A DNA stretch of 64,000 bases from Deltaproteobacteria bacterium (GCA_016713665.1 JADJOR010000002.1:1051035-1115034), one strand, 5' to 3'. Counted from the first letter of the stretch, positions 47,711 to 63,822 are shown. Numbers and translations are program-made. Notes: generated from the sequence alone by a model not told the origin.

Positions 47711-48349
47711 ATGCCGCGCGCACCTGCCGCTCCCACGCGTCACCGCACGAGCTCGAGCGACCCGCTGGACGGTCTCCGGGCTGCCGGGATCTCCGGATTC
47801 TTCCGACCGAGCCAGCTCGCGAGGGCGGGCCTGACTCGGGACCAGCTTCCGGCGCTCCTCCGGTCTGGCAAGGTCGAACGCATCGGCCGCGGCCTCTATC
47901 GGATCGCGGAGGCCGAGCCGACCGAGAACTACTCTCTCGCCATGGCATGCGCACGAGTGCCTAACAGCATCGTCTGCCTGCTGTCTGCGCTCCGCGTCCA
48001 CGGTATCGGTTCCCAGGCGTCCGCCGCGGTCTGGCTCGCCATCCCGCACAAAGCACGGGCGCCGCGTCTGCCCGAGCTTCGGCTGCGCATCGTGCGCTTC
48101 AGCGGACCGGCCTGGACATTCGGCATACAGGAAACCGAATTCGAGGGGGTGCCGGCACGCATCACGTCGCCGGCCCGGACCGTCGCCGACTGCTTCCGCT
48201 TCGAGCGCCTCATCGGACCCGAGGCGGCGATGGAGGCGCTTCAAGACGGGCTTCGCCAGCGCAAGCTGACGATCGCCGAGCTCTCTCGCGTGGAGGAAGT
48301 CCTCCCGTCGCGCCGACTCAGCGCGGCACTGGATGCGCGATCGATATGA
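47711..48349 (+). CDS. abiEi: AbiEi-family type IV toxin-antitoxin antitoxin / transcriptional regulator
   Basis: The N-terminal winged-helix segment (FRPSQLARAGLTRDQLPALLRSGKVERIGRGLYR) and C-terminal domain are typical of AbiEi. There is a 4-nt overlap with abiEii. Confidence 0.8.
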   Translation: MPRAPAAPTRHRTSSSDPLDGLRAAGISGFFRPSQLARAGLTRDQLPALLRSGKVERIGRGLYRIAEAEPTENYSLAMACARVPNSIVCLLSALRVHGIGSQASAAVWLAIPHKARAPRLPELRLRIVRFSGPAWTFGIQETEFEGVPARITSPARTVADCFRFERLIGPEAAMEALQDGLRQRKLTIAELSRVEEVLPSRRLSAALDARSI

Positions 48350-49266
48350 CGACCGATGCTGCCGCCTCGGTCCGTGCTCGACTCCTGAACCAGGCACGGG
48401 AACGCGGCGAGGAGTTCGAGTTGACGCTGACGCGCTTCGTCGCCGAGCGGCTGCTCTACCGCCTTGGAGCGTCCCGCGCGCGTGATCGCTGCATTCTGAA
48501 AGGGGCGAGCCTCCTCGCGGTCTGGCTTCCCGATCCCTACCGCGCGACGCGGGACATCGACGTCCTGGCATCGGGACCGACGGACGAGGACGCGATCCGA
48601 TCGCTCGTCGCCGAGATCTGTGCCGTTCCGTGTTCCGTGGACGGGGTGCGGTTCGACGTTTCCGAACTCGTCGTCGACGCGATCCGGTCCGAGGATGAAT
48701 ACTCCGGCCAGCGCGCGCGCTTCCGCGCCTTTCTAGGCAATGCGCGGATCGCCGTTCAGGTCGACATCGGCGTCGGCGACGCGGTGGCCGGACCGATCGA
48801 GGAGATCGACTACCCGACGATGTTGCCCGCGCTCCCCACGCCGCGGCTGCGCGCCTACCCGAGGCAGGTCGCCGTAGCCGAGAAGTTCGAGGCGATGGTC
48901 AAGCTGGACACGCGCAACAGCCGGATGAAGGATTTCCATGACGTCTGGGCCCTCGCCGGCGGATTCGCGTTCGAGGGACCAGCACTCCGAAGCGCCGTCG
49001 CCGCCTGCTTCGAACGGCGCGGTACCCCATGGACTGCCGAGGCGCCTCGAGCTTTGACGGCAGCGTTCTACCAGATGCCGGAGATCGAGTCCCGCTGGCG
49101 GCGCTATCTCGAGGCGGGCGCCGTGCTCGTGCCGCCGCCTGCGCAGTTCGAATCCATCGGGGAACGGATCATCCGCTTCCTGGGGCCGGTGCGCGAGAGC
49201 ATCCTTGCGGGCGAGCCGTTCCCGAAAATTTGGACGGAGGGAGGGCCGTGGCACCCGACCCGGTAA
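48346..49266 (+). CDS. abiEii: AbiEii/AbiGii-family nucleotidyltransferase toxin (DUF1814)
   Basis: ILKGASLL...ATRDIDVL nucleotidyltransferase motif, QVDIGVGD, and AEKFEAMV...SRMKDFHDVW. Confidence 0.85.
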   Translation: MTTDAAASVRARLLNQARERGEEFELTLTRFVAERLLYRLGASRARDRCILKGASLLAVWLPDPYRATRDIDVLASGPTDEDAIRSLVAEICAVPCSVDGVRFDVSELVVDAIRSEDEYSGQRARFRAFLGNARIAVQVDIGVGDAVAGPIEEIDYPTMLPALPTPRLRAYPRQVAVAEKFEAMVKLDTRNSRMKDFHDVWALAGGFAFEGPALRSAVAACFERRGTPWTAEAPRALTAAFYQMPEIESRWRRYLEAGAVLVPPPAQFESIGERIIRFLGPVRESILAGEPFPKIWTEGGPWHPTR

Positions 49267-49438
49267 GCCGCGGAATGAAGCGCGCATTCGGGCAGATTTT
49301 CACGGACGCGGGCGAGGGATTCGCTGCATCTCGATCGAGGCGGGGCGCGCCGGCTTCGTTTCCCCATCGATCCGGCCCGGTCGAAATCGTCGAGCGATCG
49401 GATGGCCACGCGAAGGTTCCCTGACCTAGCTTCTCTTC

Positions 49439-50609
49439 ATGCCCATCCAGCCGTTCAAAATTGAGCTCCCCGACACCCTCCTCTCCGACCTCCACGCCCG
49501 CCTGGCCAACACCCGCTGGCCCGCCGAATCCCCGAGCGCCCTCCTGGCGCCTCGGCATCCCAGAGAGCGTGCTCCGCTCCGCCATCACCCACTGGCAATC
49601 CGCCTACGACTGGCCGGCGCGCCAAGCGAGGATGAACGCCTGGCCCCACTTCCTGACCACCGCCGCCGGCGAGCAGCTCCACTTCATCCACGTCCGCTCG
49701 CCCCATCCGAACGCGACGCCGCTCCTCCTGACCCACGGCTGGCCCGGCTCCTTCGTCGAGTTCCTCGACGTTCTCGGCCCGCTCTCCGACCCGACGGCCC
49801 ATGGCGGTGACGCGGCGGATGCCTTCCACGTCGTCGTCCCCTCGATGCCGGGCTACGGGTTCTCAGGACCGACGACGCAGTCGGGCTTCGACGTCCACCG
49901 CGTCGCCGACGCCGTCGCCGAGCTGATGGCCCAGCTCGGCTACGGACGTTATGTCGCCCAGGGCGGGGACTGGGGCGCGATCGTGACCCGCCGGCTGGGG
50001 GAGGCCTACGCCGACCGGCTCCTCGGGGTCCACTTCAACATGATCTTCGCGCTCCCCGACGCGAGCGATCTGGATCCGATGGCGGGGGTGACCGACGCGG
50101 AGAAGGCGCGCTTCGCCGCGGCGGCGGCGCGCATCGCCGACGGGACCGGCTACATGGCGATCCAGAGCACGAAGCCCGAGACGCTGGCCTACGGGCTGAC
50201 CGATTCGCCGACGGGGCTCGCCGCCTGGATCCTCGAGAAGTTTTACGTCTGGAGCGACCTCGACGAGGGCGGTCTCGCCGCGACCTTCGGCTGGGATCGC
50301 TTGCTCGACAACGTGATGGCCTACTGGGCGACCAACACGATCGCCTCCGCCGCCCGCCTCTACGCCGAGTCCCGCCTCGCGGGCACGGCCGCCGACCAGC
50401 CCTGGAGCGGCCGCGTCGACGTCCCGACCGGCTACTCGCATCATCCCTACGAGCTGATGCAGACGCCGCGCGCCTGGGCGGAGAAGCGCTACCGCATCGT
50501 CCATTGGAACGAGCAGGCGCGGGGAGGGCACTTCGCGGCCTTCGAACGACCGGGGCAGTTCGTCGAGGATCTGCGGGCGTTCCGGCGGGTGTTGGCGGGC
50601 GTTCGCTGA
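49439..50609 (+). pseudogene. Epoxide hydrolase (EHN N-terminal domain plus alpha/beta hydrolase), frameshifted near the N-terminus
   Basis: MPIQPFKIELPDTLLSDLHARLANTRWPAE in one frame, then ...WRLGIPESVLRSAITHWQSAYDW...HGWPGSF in the next (track ORFs 49439.. and 49461..50609). The switch is at the C4 run at about 49530-49533. Confidence 0.75.
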
Positions 50610-50673
50610 GGCCGATTCCCGAAGCTCGATCGGGTGGCTTTCCGGGGGACGACGACGAGCGTCGTTGCCCCAG

Positions 50674-51231
50674 CTAGCGGAGCACCCGCATCAACACGAG
50701 CGCGACGCAGAGCACGATCGAGGCGATCAGGATGCAGTAGCTCCAGCGCAGGAAGCGGTACTTGGAGCGGGCGACGGCCACGCCCTGCGCGTGGATGTCG
50801 CGCACGATGGCGGCCGTGAGGGCGTTCGTATCAGAAAGAAGCTCGCCCATTTCGCGCTGGTAGCGCTCGAGCGGAAGCTCGGCGAAGTGCAGGAAGAAGA
50901 GCAGGTTGAGCTTGTCCGGATCGCCGGGGCGATAGCGACCGGGCAGCGCGCAGAGAATCGCGAGCACGAGCGCGAGGGCCGAGCCGGAGAGCAGGACGAG
51001 CAGCGCGGGGCGGAAGTCCGTGTCGCCGAGCTGGGTGAGCCCGACGCTGAAGATCAGGGCGGACACGGTGATGAGGATGTTGGCCTTCGCGTCGGCCAAC
51101 GCGCTGAAATGGATGAGCCCCTGCTGCAGGGTCCGGAGCGCGTAGTCGACCGTGCTCCGGCTCTCGATCTCGGAGAAGAGCTGCCCCTCGGCGGCGGGAC
51201 CCGGATCGTCCTGGCGGGGCGTGGCGAGCAT
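50674..51231 (-). CDS. DUF5706 / Pycsar-effector-like (PycTM-like) membrane protein
   Basis: ATG 51231 follows a GAGGGAG SD. An N-terminal helix with FSALADAKANILITVSALIF is followed by 2-3 TM helices. This is a by-eye family assignment. Confidence 0.45.
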   Translation of the reverse strand: MLATPRQDDPGPAAEGQLFSEIESRSTVDYALRTLQQGLIHFSALADAKANILITVSALIFSVGLTQLGDTDFRPALLVLLSGSALALVLAILCALPGRYRPGDPDKLNLLFFLHFAELPLERYQREMGELLSDTNALTAAIVRDIHAQGVAVARSKYRFLRWSYCILIASIVLCVALVLMRVLR

Positions 51232-51491
51232 GACTCCCTCAGCGCGCACGAGCCACGCAGGCGGAGAATAACCTCCGGGGATTGCGCGGGACAGGCCGCC
51301 CTTGCTCCACGACGGCTCGAACCTGCGATCCGGCCCGGCCGGCCTCGGGCGCGCTCTCCACTCGCGATGGCCCGCTCGCCCGCTTCGGACGATCCGCGAC
51401 ACCGCCGGTGACCCGCGCCACTGAGCCCCTGCCCATTCCGGTCGATCCGCCCAGCCTGATCCCCACGCAGACTGAGCAAGGAGGGCCCCCC

Positions 51492-53703: not shown

Positions 53704-53886
53704 GACCCGGCGACCCACCTCCGATTCGTCCCGATTCCGCCCCGGATTCGAACGCGAATCCACGCCGACTCTTCACGGATGAGCGGGGGATTCTGGACGA
53801 CACTCTGTCGCAGTCCGACCGGAACGACCGGCTCGGATCGACGCGCCCCCCCGCCGTCAGGACGCGAGCAGCCGCGGAGGGAATCC

Positions 53887-56508
53887 ATGCGACGAGATTG
53901 GGACTTCGACCAGATCCTGGGTCGGCGCGCGCGCGTCGACTTCCATCTCCATTCCTACGCATCGAACACGACCGACTACTACGCCTCGAACTCGCTCGCG
54001 ATCCCGGAGTCCTACTCCGATCCGATCGAGACCTGGCGCCTGCTCAAATCTCGGGGGATGGACCTCGTCACCCTGACGGACCACAACTCGATCGCTGGCG
54101 TCAAGGAGATGCTCGACGCCGGGCTCGAGGACGTCTTCATCAGCGCCGAGATGACGGCGACCTTTCCCGAAGACGGCTGCAACATCCATGTCACGGCGGC
54201 GAACATCTCCGAGGAGGAGTTCGCCGAGATCGATCGCCTCCGGCCGAATCTCTACGAGATGCTGGCCTACCTCGACGAGCGGATCCGGACCGAGGCCGAG
54301 CGACCGGACGGTCGCCGGATCGCCTACTTCATGACCCATCCCCTGATGAGCACGAAGAACCGCCCGTATGGGCGCGAAGGCGCGCTCTCGATCCGACACA
54401 TCGAGCGCGCGATGCTGCTCTTCGAATGCATCGAGACCCAGAACGGCGCCCGGGCGCGCTCGGGCAACGACCTGACGGCCCACATGGTCGAATCGCTCGA
54501 CGAGAAGCGGATCCTCGAGCTCGCGGCGAAGCACGAGCTCGAGCCTCGGGGCGCGATCCCGTGGCGCAAAGCCGTCGTCGGCGGCTCCGACGATCATTCG
54601 GGGATCAATCCGGGCCGGACCTGGACCGAGTTCGAATACCACGGGGAGCGGCCGCGGCCGAACGACGTGATCGACTCGATCCGACGGCGATCGACGACGA
54701 CGGGCGGCATGCACGGCGGGCCGGTGACCCTCGCCCACGCCCTCGTCAAGCTGGTCTACGACGGCCAGAACCACCGACAGCGCGCCGAGCAGGCGACCCG
54801 GCTCCACCTCTCGGACCCGATCAACCTGCTGCTCGGCTTCGCTTTCGAGAAGCCCTCGGCGTCCCTGCGATCGCGCGCGGCCCTGCGGCTGCGCATCGCG
54901 CTCCAGACCGTCTTCGCGCGACCCTTCGCCCGGCTCGTCGACCGGCGCGAGTCCTTCGAACGGGTCTTCCTCGGCGAGGCCCAGACGCTGCTCGCCGACG
55001 AGAGCTTCCGGGGGCGCCTGACGGGCATCGGATCGACCGACGACAAGATCTTCCTGATCATCAGCACGCTCCTCGATCGGCTCTTCCTCCGCTATGCGGA
55101 GCGGATCCGGAGCCAGCCGCCCGGGGACATGGTCCGGACGATCAAGGAGTCGATCGCGCTGGTCAGCTCGAACCTGCTGGTCTCCCTCCCGTACTTCGTC
55201 TCCTACGCGAACTTCGGGACGGACCGTTTGCTGAACCGCGACGTCCGCCGCGCCTTCGACCTGCGACAGACCGAGCGCCTGCTGCTCGTGACCGACACGC
55301 TCTTCGACGTGAACGGAGTCGCGCTCACGATCCGGAAGATCCTGCGCGAGGCGGAGCGCCGCGGCATCGACCTCACGGTCGTGACCGCCCTGGCGGAGCA
55401 CGAGCGCGCCGCGGGGCTCGCGGATCCGGAGATCGCAGCGCTCGTCGCGCAGGGGCGCCTCAAGATCTTCACCGCCCTCGCGAGCGCCGATCTGCCCGAG
55501 TACCAGGAGCTCCAGCTGCGGCTGATCCCGTTCCTCGACCTCCTGCGCTTCGCCCAGGAGGGGGGCTTCAGCAAGGTCCAGATCTCGACCCCCGGCCCGG
55601 TCGGTGTGCTCGGTCTGCTCGCCGCGAAGCTGCTCGGACTCGAGACCGCGGCGACCTACCACACGAGCTTCCCGGAGTACGTCGAGGAGTACACGAAGGA
55701 CGTGAGCCTCGAGGCGCTGGCGTGGCGCTACATGGTCAGCTTCTACCACTGGGTCGACGAGGTCGTGGTCCCCTCGCGCTACATCGCGCAGCTCCTCCAC
55801 AAGCGCGGCCTGCGCAATCGCAACCTGCTCGTGCTCGATCGCTGGGTCGACCTCGAGCGGTTCCACCCCCGGCATCGCACGCCCGGCTTCTGGACGCGCT
55901 TCGGCCTCGACGACGAGGCGGCGCGGGTCAAGCTCGTCTACGTGGGCCGCATCGGCGCGGAGAAGAACCTCGACGTCCTGGCCCACGCCTATCGAAGCCT
56001 CCATGCGGAGCATCCCGAGGCCCATCTCGTGATCATCGGCGGCGGCCCCTACCGAGGCGAGCTCGAGGCGTTGCTCGAGGGGCTGCCCGTGACCTTCACG
56101 GGCTATCTCGGCGGCGACGATCTCTCCCGCGCGATCGCCTCGGCCGACGCGAAGCTCTTCCCGAGCACGACCGATACCTGGGGCAACGCGCCGCTCGAGG
56201 CCCAGGCCTCCGGGCTCCCGGTCGTGGTCTCCGATCGCGGCGGACCGCAGGAGCTGATGGAGGACGGGGTCACGGGCTTCCGGGTCCGGGGCGGAGACGT
56301 CCAGTCGCTGCTCGCCGCGATGCGCGCCCTGATGGATCGCGACCTGCGCGAGCGGATGGGCCACGATGCGCGCGCGTTCGTCGAGGCGAACGACGTGCCC
56401 GAGCCCTACTCGGCGATCCTCGAGAGCACGATCTACCGCGGGCGCCGACGGAGCGAGAAGCTCCTGGCCGGGCTGCTTCGCCACGAGGACGACGCGGCGT
56501 CGGCATGA
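53887..56508 (+). CDS. PHP-domain phosphoesterase fused to a GT4-family glycosyltransferase
   Basis: The N-terminus has the PHP motifs VDFHLHSYAS and LTDHNSIAG...GGSDDHSG. The C-terminal GT-B domain carries GRIGAEKNLDVL and FPSTTDTWGNAPLEAQASGLPVV (EX7E). Confidence 0.75.
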   Translation: MRRDWDFDQILGRRARVDFHLHSYASNTTDYYASNSLAIPESYSDPIETWRLLKSRGMDLVTLTDHNSIAGVKEMLDAGLEDVFISAEMTATFPEDGCNIHVTAANISEEEFAEIDRLRPNLYEMLAYLDERIRTEAERPDGRRIAYFMTHPLMSTKNRPYGREGALSIRHIERAMLLFECIETQNGARARSGNDLTAHMVESLDEKRILELAAKHELEPRGAIPWRKAVVGGSDDHSGINPGRTWTEFEYHGERPRPNDVIDSIRRRSTTTGGMHGGPVTLAHALVKLVYDGQNHRQRAEQATRLHLSDPINLLLGFAFEKPSASLRSRAALRLRIALQTVFARPFARLVDRRESFERVFLGEAQTLLADESFRGRLTGIGSTDDKIFLIISTLLDRLFLRYAERIRSQPPGDMVRTIKESIALVSSNLLVSLPYFVSYANFGTDRLLNRDVRRAFDLRQTERLLLVTDTLFDVNGVALTIRKILREAERRGIDLTVVTALAEHERAAGLADPEIAALVAQGRLKIFTALASADLPEYQELQLRLIPFLDLLRFAQEGGFSKVQISTPGPVGVLGLLAAKLLGLETAATYHTSFPEYVEEYTKDVSLEALAWRYMVSFYHWVDEVVVPSRYIAQLLHKRGLRNRNLLVLDRWVDLERFHPRHRTPGFWTRFGLDDEAARVKLVYVGRIGAEKNLDVLAHAYRSLHAEHPEAHLVIIGGGPYRGELEALLEGLPVTFTGYLGGDDLSRAIASADAKLFPSTTDTWGNAPLEAQASGLPVVVSDRGGPQELMEDGVTGFRVRGGDVQSLLAAMRALMDRDLRERMGHDARAFVEANDVPEPYSAILESTIYRGRRRSEKLLAGLLRHEDDAASA

Positions 56509-58160
56509 GCGCAGGAAGCCATTCCGGGCTCGGGCTCTACCGCCTCTGGCCCGCTCGCTTGTTGCTCTCCCGCGCGAAGCATCCCTCGCTCGCGGGCCAC
56601 GTGCGCATGGGCAAGCGGCTCGCGCGCCTGCTGCCCTACTACGAGTACGACGAGCGGGAGTTCCTGCGTGTCGATGGCTGTCCGGACGAGGTTGCGAGCC
56701 GGCGGGCCGCAGGCCTCGCGGCGCTCTCGAAGCGCTCGAGCGAGAAGGCGCCGATCACGCTCGAGAAGACCGAGGAGCTCCTCGAGGGCGTCTCGGATTT
56801 CGTCTTCACCGACGCCTACCGCGTCCCCTTCCAGTTCCGAAGGCAGCTCGGACGCTGGCTGCGCGTCGGCGCGTTTCGCGACGCCTCGTCGGGTGTCAAG
56901 CTCCGGGATCTCGACGGCAACTGGAGCTACGACCTGACGGGCTCCTACGGGGTCAACGTCTTCGGGCTCGACCTCTACAAGGAGTGCATCGAGCGGGCGT
57001 CGGAGCGGGTGCGTGAGCTCGGTCCGCTGCTCGGCCCCTACCACCCCATCATCCTCGACAACGTCCGCCGGCTGAAGGCAATTTCGGGGCTCGACGAGGT
57101 CTCGTTCCACATGTCGGGGACCGAGGCCGTCATGCAGGCCGTGGCCCTCGCCCGATACCATACCGGGCGCAGCCATCTCGTTCGCTTCTGCGGCGCCTAC
57201 CATGGCTGGTGGGACGGAGTTCAGCCGGGGATCGGGACGTCGCGCGAGGTCCACGACGTCTACACCCTCTCGGAGGGGAGCGACGCGACCCTGCGCGTCC
57301 TCGAGACGCGCAAAGACATCGCCTGCGTCCTCGTCAACCCGTTGCAGGCGCTCCATCCGAATTCGCCGGCCCCGGGCGACTCGACCCTCGTCCACTCCGG
57401 CCGCCGCGCCCATTTCGATCGCGCCGGCTACACCGCCTGGCTCGCGAAGCTGCGCGAGGTCTGCACGCGCCGCGGCATCGTCCTGATCCTCGACGAGGTC
57501 TTCCTGGGCTTCCGATTGGCTCGGGGCGGGGCGCAGGAGTACTTCGGCGTCGAAGCCGACCTCGTGACCTACGGCAAGACGCTCGGGGGCGGGCTGCCGA
57601 TCGGCGTCGTCTGCGGGAAGCGCGCGCTCATGCGGCGCTTTCGCGAGGACCGGCCCTCCGACGTGCTCTTCGCCCGGGGGACCTTCAACGCCCATCCCTA
57701 CGTCCTGGCCGCGATGAACGAGTTCCTGAAGCGGCTCGACGACGAGGATTTGCGCGAGAGCTACGCGAACCTCGACGCGCGCTGGAACGGGCGGGTCGCA
57801 GCCCTGAACGAGCGCCTCGAGGCCCGCGGCCTTCCGGTGCGCTTCGCCAACCTGACCTCGGTCTGGACGACGCTCTTCACGGCCCCGTCCCGCTACAACT
57901 GGATGTTCCAGTTCTACCTGCGCGCCGAGGGCCTCACGCTCTCGTGGGTCGGGAGCGGACGCCTGATCTTCAGCCACGCCTACGGCGAGGACGATTTCCG
58001 CGAGGTCGCGCAGCGGATCGAGCTCGCCGCCGAACGGATGGCGGCCGACGGCTGGTGGTGGTCCGACGGCCGCGAGAGCGATTCGGACATCGCCCGTAGC
58101 ATCCTGAAGCGCGCGCTCTTCAGCCGAGCTTCGGGTCGATCAGCTCGCGGTGGACGATGA
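56505..58160 (+). CDS. Class-III (GSA-aminomutase-like) PLP-dependent aminotransferase with N-terminal extension
   Basis: There is an ATGA start/stop overlap with the upstream gene. Motifs: SGTEAVMQAVALAR, ILDEVFLGFR, and the PLP-Lys context DLVTYGKTLGGGLPIG. Confidence 0.8.
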   Translation: MSAGSHSGLGLYRLWPARLLLSRAKHPSLAGHVRMGKRLARLLPYYEYDEREFLRVDGCPDEVASRRAAGLAALSKRSSEKAPITLEKTEELLEGVSDFVFTDAYRVPFQFRRQLGRWLRVGAFRDASSGVKLRDLDGNWSYDLTGSYGVNVFGLDLYKECIERASERVRELGPLLGPYHPIILDNVRRLKAISGLDEVSFHMSGTEAVMQAVALARYHTGRSHLVRFCGAYHGWWDGVQPGIGTSREVHDVYTLSEGSDATLRVLETRKDIACVLVNPLQALHPNSPAPGDSTLVHSGRRAHFDRAGYTAWLAKLREVCTRRGIVLILDEVFLGFRLARGGAQEYFGVEADLVTYGKTLGGGLPIGVVCGKRALMRRFREDRPSDVLFARGTFNAHPYVLAAMNEFLKRLDDEDLRESYANLDARWNGRVAALNERLEARGLPVRFANLTSVWTTLFTAPSRYNWMFQFYLRAEGLTLSWVGSGRLIFSHAYGEDDFREVAQRIELAAERMAADGWWWSDGRESDSDIARSILKRALFSRASGRSARGGR

Positions 58161-58746
58161 GGCGATAGGGCGCCTTCCAATAGGTCCGCACGTCGTTGAA
58201 CGGATCGGTCACGATCTTCGCGAACCAGACGATGCCGGTCTGGACGTCGCGGATGAAGAAGAGCTGCACGGTCCGGAAGAGCAGGGCGCCGACGCCGACC
58301 GCCAGCCAGAGCATCGTCAGATCCTCGACGTAGCTGCCCGCGAGGGTGTAGGGACGGATCAGCCCGTAGAGGTCCGGCTCGAGATAGAGCAGGATCGGCG
58401 CCGCCAGGAAGACGCCGAAGAGGGCGATCTTGCGCGTCAGGTTGTAGCCGATCTTGACGTCTTCCTTCTCCTGATGGGTCATGCCGTTGACGTGGTCGTA
58501 GCCGTTGGGCTCGAAGAAGAAGTGGCCGATCTGGCGCGAGATCCAGGCGCCGAGCCAGCCGATCCAGACCGCCAGCGCCTGGTCGATCGCGAGCAGCGCG
58601 TACGAGGTCAGGAAGCAGCAGGCGCTGAAGAGGTGGAGGCTCTGGTTGATCCGGCTGTGGTGGTAGAAGCGGTGGTCGTCCCAGCGCTGCTCGCGCAGGG
58701 CTTCCCGGAAGCTCTGCTTCTGGACGGGGATCAGGGCGGTCTGCAT
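58120..58746 (-). CDS. Mpo1-like / DUF962 membrane protein
   Basis: YHHSRINQSLHLFS and IGHFFFEPN His motifs within 4-5 TM helices resemble the DUF962 (yeast Mpo1) family. Confidence 0.5.
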   Translation of the reverse strand: MQTALIPVQKQSFREALREQRWDDHRFYHHSRINQSLHLFSACCFLTSYALLAIDQALAVWIGWLGAWISRQIGHFFFEPNGYDHVNGMTHQEKEDVKIGYNLTRKIALFGVFLAAPILLYLEPDLYGLIRPYTLAGSYVEDLTMLWLAVGVGALLFRTVQLFFIRDVQTGIVWFAKIVTDPFNDVRTYWKAPYRLIVHRELIDPKLG

Positions 58747-58762: not shown

Positions 58763-59791
58763 TCAGGGGCTCGCGGCGGCGATGGGATGTCGCACCGTGC
58801 CCCCCGCACGGTCGAGCCCTTCACGTGAGCGAGCGTTCATGTCGATCAAGAGCGGCTCGCCGACCTTCACGAGCCGGCCTTCGCGGATGCGATCCGCCAG
58901 CACGAGGTCGGGGCTCGCGAGGACGACGATCGTCGAGCCCTGCTCGAACCAGCCGAGCTCCTGGCCCTTCTCGTAGCGCGCGTCGCAGGCGATCCGCGTC
59001 GGGCCGGCATAGCGGAGCCCGAGTGTCGAATCGAGGCAGTGCAGACGCAGCGTCGCCACACCGATCGCGGCGATCGCGACGAGGGTCAGGGCAGGTCCGG
59101 ACTCTTCCTGGCGATCGCGGCGATCGCGGCGATCGTGTCCATCGGCTCCGCGGCGCGGATCGACGCGCGGTTCGAGATGCGGCCCGAGAAGCGGTTCGAG
59201 TCGCAGCGGAATGACGGCGCGCTCGTTGCGGCAGAAGAGGCGCTCGACGCGGGCGAGGGCGATGGGGTTGACGTTCCAGGTATCGCCCGCGATGTGGATG
59301 ACCTCCGACACGCGACAGCGCGTCGGCGCGTGGAAGCGGTGGTACATCGTCGATTTGAGGCGGAGCGTGACGTAGCGGCCGCCCTGGTGGCGCCGCGCGA
59401 GGGCCTCGTCTCCGAGCAGGTCGGCGAGGGCGTAGTCGAGGTCCTTGGCCTGGATCAGGGTCCCCGCCTCGATGCGCCCGCAGGCGCCGACGATGGCGTC
59501 ACAGGGGCTGACGATCGTGTCGGGTGCGCTCGCGATGGGGCGCGCGCCGGGGCGAAGCTCCCGGATGAAGCAATCGCGCAGGCTGCGGAACTCGGTGGTG
59601 CGGGCCTCGGAGAAGTCGAGCTCCGGGGCGAACTGCTTCCAGACGGCGAGGGACGTTCCGACGACGAGCGGGCTCTCGATGCGACTCCACCAGCCGAGGA
59701 AGAGCGTCGCGAACCGCCGTGGGATCCGATTCGTCAGGAGGAAGTTGAGATCTTCCTGTTGCACGAGGCGTCCGATCATTCGCGTCCACAT
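58763..59791 (-). CDS. psd: Phosphatidylserine decarboxylase family protein (with low-complexity insert)
   Basis: LLTNRIPRR, SPCDA, MYHRFHAP and the self-cleavage context FEQGSTIVV. An Arg/Asp-rich insert of about 30 aa lies at 59060-59160. Confidence 0.75.
   Translation of the reverse strand: MWTRMIGRLVQQEDLNFLLTNRIPRRFATLFLGWWSRIESPLVVGTSLAVWKQFAPELDFSEARTTEFRSLRDCFIRELRPGARPIASAPDTIVSPCDAIVGACGRIEAGTLIQAKDLDYALADLLGDEALARRHQGGRYVTLRLKSTMYHRFHAPTRCRVSEVIHIAGDTWNVNPIALARVERLFCRNERAVIPLRLEPLLGPHLEPRVDPRRGADGHDRRDRRDRQEESGPALTLVAIAAIGVATLRLHCLDSTLGLRYAGPTRIACDARYEKGQELGWFEQGSTIVVLASPDLVLADRIREGRLVKVGEPLLIDMNARSREGLDRAGGTVRHPIAAASP
59110..59136. repeat. 9-bp tandem repeat ggcgatcgc x3 (encodes DRRDRRDR on the minus strand) inside psd
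   Basis: Read directly from the sequence. Two further copies of cgatcgcg(g/a) occur at 59061-59080. Confidence 0.8.
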
Positions 59792-60062: not shown

Positions 60063-60635
60063 TCAGGATTCGGCGCGGGTCGCTTCGGACTCGGGCAAGC
60101 GCTCGGCGAAAGCGCCGAGGACGTAGTAGGCGGTCTCGAGCAGGGGCAGCACGAACCAATCGGGATGGGGATGGCGCAGCAGCAGGAACAGGCCCCAGAT
60201 CGAGAGGACGGTGCCGACGTATTGGGGATGGTCGAGGACCGAGTAGGGGAACTCCCGGCTCCACTCGACCGGGCGCCCGAATCGGTTGCCGTAGAAGACG
60301 CCGACGCGTCCGAGGCGCAGGAAGACGGCGACGTTGAGGATCTGGCCGATGAGGATCAGCGCGAGGGCGGCCCATCCGATCGGCGACGCCCAGTTGAAGG
60401 GCCAGCCCGTCTCGGCGCCGAAGCGCAGGCACCAGGCGGAGAAGACGACCAGCTGGACGCCCTTGAAGACGACGAAGAGCCGCTGCAGGGCATCGACGGG
60501 ATCACCCAGGCCCACACGTTCGCAGAGCGCTGCGTAGGTGGCCGGCCGACGATGGATCCACGCATAGGCGAAGCGTTCGATCGAGAGCAGGACAGCAGGC
60601 AGAAAGAGGTCACCCGGCTCCACAGGTATGGCCAC
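60063..60635 (-). CDS. PEMT/ICMT-like membrane methyltransferase (phospholipid N-methyltransferase family)
   Basis: Contains 4-5 TM helices. The C-terminal motif is FPYSVLDHPQYVGTVL...LLETAYYV, as in PEMT-type enzymes. Confidence 0.55.
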   Translation of the reverse strand: MAIPVEPGDLFLPAVLLSIERFAYAWIHRRPATYAALCERVGLGDPVDALQRLFVVFKGVQLVVFSAWCLRFGAETGWPFNWASPIGWAALALILIGQILNVAVFLRLGRVGVFYGNRFGRPVEWSREFPYSVLDHPQYVGTVLSIWGLFLLLRHPHPDWFVLPLLETAYYVLGAFAERLPESEATRAES

Positions 60636-60747: not shown

Positions 60748-62223
60748 TCATGCGCCCTCCCTCTTTCGGGTCGTCAGCGACGGACCGCTCAGCAGCCGCG
60801 TGAGCAGTCGATAGGTCTGCGCGCCGTAGGGCCACTGGGTCACGATCTTCCCCGCCGCATTCTTGAAGTAGTTCCGGCTCGTCGTCCAGGCGGTCCCGCG
60901 CATGCCGTCCTGCAGCCAGGCATGCCAGACGTCGGCCCAGAAGGGCTTGACCTCCGCCGCCGTCGTCCCCTCGCGCATCATGCGCTGGATCGCCCGCAGC
61001 GCGTGGCCGGATTGTGCGAGCAGCGAGGTCACGATCTCGCCCCCGTTGGTCCCCGGCCCGTACAGCATGAAGAAGTTCGGAAACCCGGGCACCGTCGTCC
61101 CGAGGAATCCCCGCGGCTCGTCGTTCCAGTATTCCTTCAGCGTCTGCCCGCCGACGCCGACGACCTCGACCCGCGCGAGATAGTTCGTCGGCTGGAAGCC
61201 CGTCGCCATCACGAGCACGTCGACCTTGCGCTCGGTCCCGTCGACGTCGACGATGCCGCTCGCCGTCACGCGGGCGACGGCGCGGGGGATCAGCTCGACG
61301 TTCGGGCGCTTCAGCGCCGGGTAGAAGTCCGAGCTGAAGATCGGCCGCTTGCCGGGATAGGCGTATTTCGGCGTGACCAGCGCCTTCAGATCCGGACGAT
61401 CGGCGAAGACCTCGTCGAGGTAGGCGAGGGCGGCGGCCTTGCCGAGCGTGTTGACCCGCGTGCCGGGCTTCCAGAAGTTGCCGCGCCAGGAGCTGTGCTC
61501 GATCGACCAGAAGCCCTTGATCCGCTCCCAGCGGTAGCGCAGCGGGCTGCGCCATTTCCTGCGCTCGTCGGGGGTGAAGTCGTGGTCGCCCTTGGGCAGG
61601 ACCCAGCCGGGCTCGCGTTGGAAGAGATGGAGACGCTTCACGATCGGCGCGATCGTCGGGACGATCTGGGTCGCGCTCGAGCCGGTGCCCACGATCGCGA
61701 CGGTCCGGCCGGCGAGATCATGCTGATGTTCCCAGCGCGCGGTATGGAATTTCGGGCCCTCGAAGCGCTCGAGACCCGGCCACGACGGATACTGCGGGAC
61801 GTTCAGGAAGCCGACGGCGGAGATGAGGACGTGGCAGACGAAGGTCTCGCCGTGGCCGAGCGAGAGCGTCCAGGCATGCGTCGATTCGTCCCAGGCCGCG
61901 CGCTCGACCGGGACGCCGAGGCGGATCTTCGGGGCGAGGCCGTAGTCGACGACGGTCTCTTCGAGATAGGCGTGGAGCTCCGCCTGCTTCGCGTGGGTCC
62001 GCGTCCAGTCGTGGCGCTTGAACGGGAAGGAGTACATGTGCGAGGGGACGTCGACCTCGCAGCCGGGATATTGGTTGTCCCACCAGGTCCCGCCGACCCG
62101 CGTCGAGGCCTCGAAGAGGGTGAAGTCCTGGATTCCGGCGTTCTGGAGCGTGATCGCGGCGGAGAGGCCCCCGAATCCCGCGCCGATGATGGCGACCGTA
62201 GGCGACTTGCTCTTGCCGAACAC
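60748..62223 (-). CDS. Flavin-dependent Baeyer-Villiger-type monooxygenase (class B)
   Basis: FAD motif IIGAGFGGL, NADPH motif IVGTGSSA, and BVMO fingerprint FEGPKFHTARW (FxGxxxHxxxW). Confidence 0.85.
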   Translation of the reverse strand: MFGKSKSPTVAIIGAGFGGLSAAITLQNAGIQDFTLFEASTRVGGTWWDNQYPGCEVDVPSHMYSFPFKRHDWTRTHAKQAELHAYLEETVVDYGLAPKIRLGVPVERAAWDESTHAWTLSLGHGETFVCHVLISAVGFLNVPQYPSWPGLERFEGPKFHTARWEHQHDLAGRTVAIVGTGSSATQIVPTIAPIVKRLHLFQREPGWVLPKGDHDFTPDERRKWRSPLRYRWERIKGFWSIEHSSWRGNFWKPGTRVNTLGKAAALAYLDEVFADRPDLKALVTPKYAYPGKRPIFSSDFYPALKRPNVELIPRAVARVTASGIVDVDGTERKVDVLVMATGFQPTNYLARVEVVGVGGQTLKEYWNDEPRGFLGTTVPGFPNFFMLYGPGTNGGEIVTSLLAQSGHALRAIQRMMREGTTAAEVKPFWADVWHAWLQDGMRGTAWTTSRNYFKNAAGKIVTQWPYGAQTYRLLTRLLSGPSLTTRKREGA

Positions 62224-62438: not shown

Positions 62439-63822
62439 GTGAGATCGAGGCCCATCCGATCGATCGTGCTCGCGCTCTCGCTGCTCGCCGGCTTCGGCGG
62501 GAGCGGCTGCCGGACCTATTTCACCGTGAACGACGCGCTCACGCGGATCGAGCCGCGCACGGGCTACCGCGCCGATCGCCGCTGGTCGCCGGCGCGCTCG
62601 AACGAGCTGCTCGTCATCGTCGCGTTCTCGGGGGGCGGGACCCGGGCGGCCTCCTTCGCGTACGGCGTGCTCGAGGGGCTCGAGCGGACACGCATCTCGA
62701 TCGACGGTCGCACGGTCTCGCTCTTCGACGAGATCGACCACGTGACGGGTGTCTCCGGGGGGAGCTTCACGGCCGCCTATCTCGGGCTCCACGGCCGCGG
62801 GATCTTCGCCGACTTCGAGGAGCGCTTCCTGCGCCGGGACGTGCAGGGCGCCTGATCCTCCAGATGCTCACGCCCTGGAACTGGGTTCTCTTCGCGTCGC
62901 CCTTCTTCGAGCGCAGCGACATGATCGCCCGCTACTACGATCGCATCCTCTTCGAGGAAGCGACCTTCGCCGATCTCGCCGCGCGAAATGGTCCCTGATC
63001 CAGATCAACGCGACGGACCTCGCGACGGGCTCGCCCTTCTCCTTCATCCAGGACCAGTTCGACTTCACTCTGCTCGGATCTCTCTCGACCTATCCGATCT
63101 CGCGCGCGGTCGCGGCGTCGTCGGCGGTGCCCGGGCCGATGTCGCCGCTCACGCTGCGCAACTTCGCGGGACAGTGCGGCTTCGTGCCGCCGCCCTGGAT
63201 CGGCGAGGCGATCGCGTCGCAACGGACCTTCAGCCGCAACTACGTCAACGCCATGAACCTCGACTCCGATACCCGCCGCAAGGCGCGCCGCTTCATCCGG
63301 CTGATCGACGGCGGCGTCTCCGACAATCTCGGCGTCCGCGGTCCCTTCGAGAGCACGCTGCTCCAGCGCGCGCCGAGCGAGGTCGAGCGCGAAGAGCTCG
63401 GACCGCTCCGCCACATGGTCCTCGTGCTGGTCAACGCCGCGACGGCGCCCGAGGTTGAGTGGGAGGCGATCGACGCCGCGCCCGCGCTCTTCGACATCAT
63501 CGATCAGACGACGACCGTCCAGATCAACCGCTACACCCTCGAGACGATCGAGCTCCTGCGCGCGACCTTCGAGAGCTGGCAGGAGGTCGCCGCGACCTTT
63601 TCCGAGCCGGTCGGCTTTCACCTCGTCGAGGTCGACTTCACGAAGCCGGCGGATCCGGCGGAGCGCCTCTATCTGAACTCGCTCCCGACGAGCTTCCGCC
63701 TCGACGACGAGGCCGTCGATCGGCTGCGGGCGGCGGGACGCGACTCGCTCGAGGCGGATCCGGAGTTCCGTGCGCTCGTCGAGTCCCTCGGAGGACGGTC
63801 GCGGCCGGTCGGGGCCGAGTAG
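62439..63822 (+). pseudogene. Patatin-like phospholipase lipoprotein, two frameshifts
   Basis: Signal/lipobox LLAGFGGSGC, oxyanion motif FSGGGTRA, nucleophile GVSGGS, and catalytic Asp IDGGVSDNLG. The gene is spread over three frames (62439..62855, ..62998, ..63822), with switches at about 62850 and about 62995. Confidence 0.75.

Follow-up and report, generated by a model that had tools for sequence, protein, structure and literature searches.

The 64,000-nt window analyzed here, a stretch of DNA from Deltaproteobacteria bacterium (GCA_016713665.1 JADJOR010000002.1:1051035-1115034), carries a gene module of unusual composition. Its members include: (i) gene A, a fusion of a PHP domain to a GT4 glycosyltransferase (GT) through a helical linker, (ii) gene B, a class-III pyridoxal phosphate (PLP) aminotransferase (AT) whose start overlaps the stop of gene A, (iii) an Mpo1/DUF962-like membrane protein, (iv) a paralogue of phosphatidylserine (PS) decarboxylase (PSD), and (v) a lineage-specific fifth member, a phospholipid methyltransferase-like membrane protein of the PEMT type. 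The unit is of four to five genes, larger than the A/B pair. The likeliest role of the module is to make or remodel an amine-bearing, possibly phosphorus-free head group of a membrane lipid, a reading held with middling confidence. As the window is ~70% G+C, open reading frame (ORF) lists are noisy, and the real genes were picked out from them by third-position G+C. Related loci were examined in 80 metagenome contigs and three genomes (n=83); a scan of genome contigs with a single protein returned one locus, and a scan of metagenomes with an alignment returned the 80.

Gene A (53887-56508, + strand) encodes 873 amino acids, in agreement with the PHP-GT4 fusion of approximately 870 residues read at this position in the initial annotation. 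The ORF starts with an ATG at 53887, has a GGAGGG ribosome-binding site 5-6 nt upstream, and is codon-biased, with a third-position G+C (GC3) of 0.91. The start Met is common to close homologues, and full-length homologues of 57-84% identity are found in Myxococcota and Planctomycetota. The PHP domain spans residues 12-296 (53920-54774, + strand). Pfam family PF02811 (PHP) does not match gene A, and only PHP_C is detected (E 0.016, 15.2 bits vs. 21.3); thus, the PHP assignment rests on motifs and fold. Distant homologues likewise match PF02811 only below threshold, and the miss reflects the sensitivity of the hidden Markov model, not the fold. The PHP motifs noted in the initial annotation, which might have proved degenerate on proper alignment, are instead invariant in 24 homologues (57-84% identity) and include D18-x-H20-x-H22, T-D65-H66-N67-S, E88, H101, H151 and G-S-D235-D236-H237. 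The metal ligands H20, H22, E88, H101, H151, D235 and H237 (with D65 and H66) are nearly invariant in 28 distant homologues, and a profile of these 28 sequences finds PHP enzymes as its best, if weak, PDB matches. An AlphaFold model of residues 1-465 (pLDDT 87.9) returns only PHP proteins as top Foldseek matches (E 3e-7 to 2e-4), with PsfC, RNase AM and BAD_1165 at E 3e-7. VIA-align over residues 12-296 gives Z scores of 18.6 (3e38), 17.9 (7rty), 16.9 (2anu), 15.5 (RNase AM) and 14.5 (2yb1). Judged by motifs and model together, the N-terminus of gene A is a genuine PHP fold with intact ligands, and phosphoesterase activity is predicted. Pfam and phmmer sequence searches of this N-terminus, the latter against the PDB, gave no PHP match and only chance matches to ribosomal protein mL48, and the assignment to PHP was settled by the fold search.

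The linker between the two catalytic domains is shorter than first described, with ~170 residues (297-465; 54775-55281, + strand) rather than approximately 250, and is all-helical in predicted models. Its helices (H311-456) are present in both predicted models, and residues 423-441 form a conserved semi-hydrophobic stretch whose hydropathy peak (1.46) is too low for a transmembrane segment. Proteins of PHP-GT4 architecture are widespread, with 1,254 clusters at 50% identity recovered by the N-terminal half of gene A, all of them named just "glycosyltransferase". Distant PHP-GT4 paralogues (30-37% identity) are without an aminotransferase; four of the eight adjoin another glycosyltransferase, and nothing else recurs beside them.

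The GT4 domain (55282-56406, + strand), of the GT-B fold and retaining type, is matched above cut-offs by PF13692 (110.8 bits), PF00534 (107 bits) and PF13439 (68.2 bits) within the C-terminal 400 residues of gene A, such that both Rossmann halves match GT4 family models. Foldseek places the domain with PimB', MshA, GlgM and BshA (E between 1e-17 and 1e-16; about 2e-17 for PimB' and MshA). The strict EX7E motif that had been assigned to the domain is absent; an invariant D763-x7-E771 occupies the equivalent place and, in alignment, is a conservative variant of EX7E. The best NCBIfam match is GpgS, the N-acetylglucosamine (GlcNAc)-phosphatidylglycerol synthase (NF053787), with a score of 121.8 bits that falls far short of the 480-bit cut-off and makes the domain a non-member. 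The GT4 of a metagenomic triple fusion likewise matches GpgS and the monoglucosyldiacylglycerol (MGlcDAG) synthase. By family match, the GT4 is closest to lipid-directed enzymes.

Gene B (56505-58160, + strand) encodes a 551-residue aminotransferase of the glutamate-1-semialdehyde (GSA)-aminomutase/AMT subgroup. The class-III assignment made in the initial annotation holds, with PF00202 at 102.7 bits and both Lys358 and Asp330 present; K358, the PLP lysine, corresponds to the lysine in the YGK motif conserved in MycA, and D330, the ring-nitrogen aspartate, resides within a DEV motif. The extra N-terminal region of ~110 residues is real (about 110-120 amino acids) but is not an oddity of this gene, as it extends across the subfamily, including eukaryotic fusions. 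Gene B scores 164.3 bits against the HemL model TIGR00713 (cut-off 527.3) and, thus, is not HemL by equivalog score; a separate HemL-like gene is found elsewhere in the genome. The best solved relative is the AMT domain of MycA of mycosubtilin synthase (6kfm, 1.4e-46), with GSA aminomutases at about 1e-32. In sequence, gene B is nearest to the GSA aminomutase and to the beta-ketoacyl aminotransferase domains of nonribosomal peptide synthetases (NRPS) and polyketide synthases (PKS).

This resemblance to MycA raises the alternative of a specialized-metabolite or envelope-glycan pathway, in which a beta-amino fatty acid, of the kind found in iturin-type lipopeptides, would be produced by the aminotransferase and then glycosylated. 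The closest plasmid matches, aside from one Sphingomonas orthologue, point the same way, as they are Ralstonia NRPS/PKS domains (33% identity). Such a pathway is nevertheless very unlikely: no gene for an acyl-carrier protein, ketosynthase, adenylation or condensation domain recurs among 93 flanking genes of 32 loci, the module is self-contained with a stand-alone aminotransferase, and the PSD and N-methyltransferase partners would be left unexplained. The partners are instead those that favor a membrane-lipid head group as the product.

The ATGA overlap of genes A and B (56505-56508, + strand) is as initially described, with the ATG of gene B at 56505 residing inside the terminal ATGA of gene A, and is conserved in related loci. 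Of 58 loci in which the GT precedes the AT, 50 share a 4-nt NTGA overlap (ATGA in 28, GTGA in 19 and TTGA in 3). In seven of the eight loci without NTGA, the two genes overlap or are no more than 8 nt apart. Of 65 informative loci, 64 have the aminotransferase; thus, the pair and its coupling, surveyed for conservation elsewhere, are found to be retained. Chance adjacency of unrelated genes was considered as an explanation and is rejected on the conservation and on the gene fusions described below. At its other end, gene B overlaps the convergent Mpo1-like gene by 41 nt (58120-58160, 3' ends), and similar convergent overlaps are noted in the tblastn coordinates of close relatives (e.g., L023). 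In a metagenome-assembled genome contig (L001, 10001-14152), tblastn recovers the orthologous fusion in six pieces and the aminotransferase in two, in several frames; these broken frames look like assembly indel errors, not pseudogenes.

Of 45 informative loci, 44 have all four of the GT fusion, aminotransferase, Mpo1-like and PSD genes, arranged in four different ways, while the genes around them are unrelated between loci, with no family accounting for more than 4 of 93 flanking genes (32 loci). In the window, the Mpo1-like and PSD genes are convergent to the A/B pair. The Mpo1-like protein (58120-58746, - strand; 208 residues) has 3-4 hydrophobic segments and a cluster of residues (D23, D24, H25, H29, H38, H75, E79 and D84) that are each conserved to 95% or more across 47 module copies, a pattern which suggests a metal site.

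The PSD paralogue (58763-59791, - strand; 342 residues) matches PF02666 (E 7e-47) and exceeds the cut-off of TIGR00163 (133.6 vs. 111.75 bits). Its matches to E. coli PSD structures reach 7e-24, and the N-terminal portion alignable to the E. coli enzyme is retained, as is a G-S-T self-cleavage site at residue 285. A second PSD of the genome is just 39% identical to the module PSD, while module copies in other phyla are 47-69% identical to it. By these identities, the module PSD is an extra and separately conserved paralogue, of which PS itself may be a substrate. An Arg/Asp/Pro-rich insert of ~31 residues (about 195-230; window positions 59100-59210) splits the Pfam match of the module PSD into two stretches and is absent from the Sphingomonas orthologue.

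The methyltransferase of the window (60063-60635, - strand; 190 residues) matches PF04191 at 55.7 bits (cut-off 25), and its counterpart in a same-genus relative (L013) sits between the AT and Mpo1-like genes. Other lineages use other enzymes: a gene similar to OlsG and Agrobacterium PmtA resides upstream of the module in 21 loci, and a Legionella PmtA-like methyltransferase adjoins, or is fused to, the Mpo1-like domain. Three non-homologous methyltransferase families have therefore been recruited to the module, each closest to a known phospholipid N-methyltransferase; as all scores are below equivalog cut-offs, these assignments are resemblances only.

Gene fusions link the same partners. A metagenomic protein (P0317) joins GT4, aminotransferase and Mpo1-like domains in one chain, Mpo1-like domains are fused to methyltransferases in more than 12 clusters, and an Mpo1-like+PSD fusion is noted once (P0316). 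In Euglena gracilis, E. mutabilis, Bigelowiella natans, Partenskyella glossopodia and a picozoan (P0319, P0320, P0327, P0329 and P0330), the aminotransferase forms the C-terminus of proteins of ~1,250 residues and is 41-47% identical, N-terminal region included. The N-terminus of these eukaryotic fusions is GT2-like, based on weak Pfam matches and on Atlas neighbours that are all GT2. A kinship of the Euglena N-terminus to PHP-GT4 was examined by profile comparison with the PHP-GT4 alignment, and no relation was found. Between the GT2-like region and the aminotransferase, no domain is recognizable.

Partner swaps are also seen among bacteria. A plain GT4 without PHP precedes the aminotransferase in a myxobacterial genome (G109), while on a Sphingomonas parapaucimobilis replicon the group of PSD, aminotransferase, Mpo1-like and methyltransferase genes has no glycosyltransferase beside it. 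The PHP domain is missing in G109, in the triple fusion and in Sphingomonas, and is the least constant part of the module. The pairings and fusions of the aminotransferase with a PHP-less GT4 or a GT2-like domain argue that the link between aminotransferase and glycosyltransferase is old and general and that PHP is an add-on. Mpo1-like copies on Bradyrhizobium plasmids are orphans amid insertion sequence (IS) elements and are uninformative. Among sampled genomes of the phylum, the fusion is found in 3/301 and the aminotransferase in 4/301, and only one of five congeners has this orthologue group. This patchy distribution fits an accessory, transferable trait, and the pattern as a whole fits a module that is self-contained and horizontally mobile.

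The initial annotation proposed that a phosphoesterase, a glycosyltransferase and an aminotransferase form one coupled unit for the sequential processing of a (phospho)glycosylated substrate. The coupling is supported by the conserved overlap, the near-constant presence of the aminotransferase and the fusions, but the unit is larger than envisaged and its partners point to a membrane-lipid head group. The lipid nature of the substrate, the order of the steps and the product are here inferred as follows. The PHP domain would come first, in a PlcP- or phosphatase-like capacity: from a glycerophospholipid or a phosphorylated intermediate it would cleave a phosphate or phospho-head group, leaving an acceptor such as diacylglycerol for the fused GT4 to glycosylate. 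The His/Asp-rich Mpo1-like membrane protein may then oxidize the lipid-bound group, which would be aminated by the translationally coupled PLP enzyme. Removal of a carboxylate adjacent to this amine would fall to the PSD paralogue, by analogy to the conversion of PS to phosphatidylethanolamine (PE), and the phospholipid-type N-methyltransferase would methylate the amine, by analogy to the conversion of PE to phosphatidylcholine (PC). The end result would be a glycolipid with an amine, possibly N-methylated, that is able to replace PE or PC.

Several observations weigh against this pathway. All module homologues carry generic names only, and the Mpo1-like assignment is a resemblance that falls below the Pfam cut-off (PF06127, 22.7 bits vs. 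24; 17.4 bits for a relative). The nearest solved relative of the aminotransferase works on acyl-carrier-bound beta-keto acids, not head groups. The absence of PHP from some module versions makes its role auxiliary. Pho boxes are not clearly enriched upstream (3/72 loci vs. 0.7 expected, with a shuffle maximum of 3), as judged with an E. coli-type consensus that may not be that of these phyla. Neither the fusion protein nor the aminotransferase of the window has a transmembrane segment by hydropathy, and by Foldseek the GT4 also resembles enzymes of soluble acceptors, including MshA, BshA and sucrose-phosphate synthase.

These last two observations, along with the proximity of the GT4 fold to GlgM, would suit a soluble glycoside or compatible solute, the synthesis of which would have the GT4 glycosylate a phosphorylated small acceptor and the PHP domain dephosphorylate it, as in sucrose-phosphate synthase/phosphatase or MshA with a phosphatase. 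Tailoring of an amine on the solute would be left to the aminotransferase, decarboxylase and methyltransferase, and enzymes of the PSD family can indeed use soluble amino acids (e.g., PsiD). This route is unlikely, as the module invariably includes an integral membrane protein, its PSD scores above the cut-off of the lipid PS-decarboxylase model and retains an E. coli-like N-terminal region, and the methyltransferases are of phospholipid types that include the membrane-embedded PEMT. The GT4, in addition, has a phosphatidylglycerol glycosyltransferase as its best family match. A lipid head group remains the favored target of the module.

A further alternative accepts the lipid and reverses the chemistry. 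A perfect palindrome (GGATTCG-N4-CGAATCC; 53744-53761, no strand assigned), read from the sequence as a candidate operator, lies 126 nt upstream of the start codon of gene A, and close relatives (L001 and L023-L028) have related palindromes in the equivalent position. The 6.38-Mb genome has two exact copies vs. 0.017 expected. The other copy (C2:175653-175670, L110) is followed, 60 nt downstream, by the gene for an OmpR/PhoB-family response regulator that has PhoB as its best model (155 bits vs. a cut-off of 296). The palindrome may be an operator shared by the two loci. A link of the sole other copy to a PhoB-like regulator would suit head-group stripping for phosphate salvage, in which PS is converted to PE by the PSD, PE to phosphatidate by PLP-dependent deamination or phospho-lyase activity, phosphatidate to diacylglycerol and phosphate by PHP, and diacylglycerol to a glycolipid by the GT4. 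The enzymes would form one catabolic line with no amine built, in keeping with the phosphoesterase and GT4 logic of PlcP-Agt and with a class-III fold that includes ethanolamine-phosphate phospho-lyase. This scheme is rather unlikely. The repeated gain of phospholipid N-methyltransferase-like genes would be senseless for the destruction of a head group, some GT-AT fusions have no PHP at all, the aminotransferase has its affinities with GSA aminomutase and AMT domains rather than with known lyases, and the weak Pho-box signal noted above does not help it. Synthesis or remodeling of an amine-bearing head group accommodates the methyltransferases, which are its proposed last step.

Within the head-group reading, a more specific variant is a phosphorus-free analogue of the PS, PE and PC series, in which a GT-installed sugar or sugar-derived carboxy-acetal replaces the phosphate. 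Diacylglycerol would receive its acetal link from the GT, and an O-substituted serine would arise by the joint action of the Mpo1-like oxygenase and the aminotransferase. This serine would be decarboxylated by the PSD paralogue, and PE-type methyltransferases would quaternize the amine. This enzyme logic would fit a betaine lipid of the diacylglyceryl carboxyhydroxymethylcholine (DGCC) type, or an undescribed relative, made by a pathway common to bacteria and to euglenid and chlorarachniophyte algae. The biosynthesis of DGCC is entirely unknown (PMC10685587). As the eukaryotes found (euglenids, chlorarachniophytes and Picozoa) are not classic DGCC producers, the idea is kept at low probability.

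Other genes of the window are less closely tied to the module. An FMO-like gene (60748-62223) and a patatin-like phospholipase gene (62439-63822) follow the methyltransferase and are not kept beside the module elsewhere. The phospholipase is apparently split into overlapping ORFs (62439-62855 and 62749-63822), which suggests a frameshift or assembly error. Upstream of the lipid genes (48346-51402) are defence-type genes, of which that at 48346-49266 encodes an AbiEii toxin and that at 50674-51402 a Pycsar-effector-like membrane protein. The module of L001 is also flanked by a CAP12/Pycsar TIR effector.

Bacteria and algae that face phosphate scarcity swap phospholipids for phosphorus-free lipids, and we know of no genes for several of these lipids. 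The module is compact, strongly conserved and small enough for expression in E. coli, with relatives in Myxococcota, Planctomycetota and Sphingomonas and, as fusions, in eukaryotic protists. If the lipid reading is true, the module would represent a new lipid class or pathway and would provide a first function for the PHP-GT4 fusion family, the bacterial Mpo1-like proteins and a distinct aminotransferase subfamily.

A literature search on the enzyme combination, DUF962, betaine lipids and phosphorus-free lipids found no description of the module, and of the known systems PlcP-Agt, GpgSDF and Pss-Psd-Pmt, none contains its enzyme set. PlcP-Agt is a lipid renovation system of phosphate stress in Phaeobacter, SAR11 and Agrobacterium, in which a phosphoesterase and the GT4 enzyme Agt, which adds a sugar to diacylglycerol, are encoded by adjacent and co-expressed genes (PMC4796936). 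The module is similar in that a phosphoesterase is placed ahead of a GT4. By contrast, PlcP is a calcineurin-type metallophosphoesterase, while the module has a non-homologous PHP domain fused to the GT via the 170-residue helical linker, and PlcP-Agt is without an aminotransferase, PSD paralogue or Mpo1-like partner. No metallophosphoesterase is among the 25 most frequent families of the 93 flanking genes; one is found upstream in a 6-locus cluster. The GpgSDF system synthesizes glucosaminyl-phosphatidylglycerol in Pseudomonas aeruginosa (PMC12713373). GpgS is the best family match of the module GT4, and in both systems (as proposed for the module) a sugar is placed on a lipid head group that ends in a cationic amine. 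The match is nonetheless distant (121.8 vs. 480), the amine of GpgSDF arises by GlcNAc deacetylation and not by transamination, and GpgSDF has no PHP, PSD or Mpo1-like member.

The MycA AMT domain and HemL are the closest solved sequences to gene B and share its conserved PLP lysine and aspartate. Gene B differs from both as a stand-alone enzyme with a subfamily-specific N-terminal extension and no recurring carrier-protein partner. Compared to the Pss-Psd-Pmt route from PS to PE to PC, the module is without a PS synthase, its PSD is an extra paralogue, and it needs glycosyltransferase and aminotransferase partners that the classical route does not. What the module has in common with this route is a PSD-family decarboxylase with an intact self-cleavage site, combined with N-methyltransferase-like enzymes of all three bacterial types.

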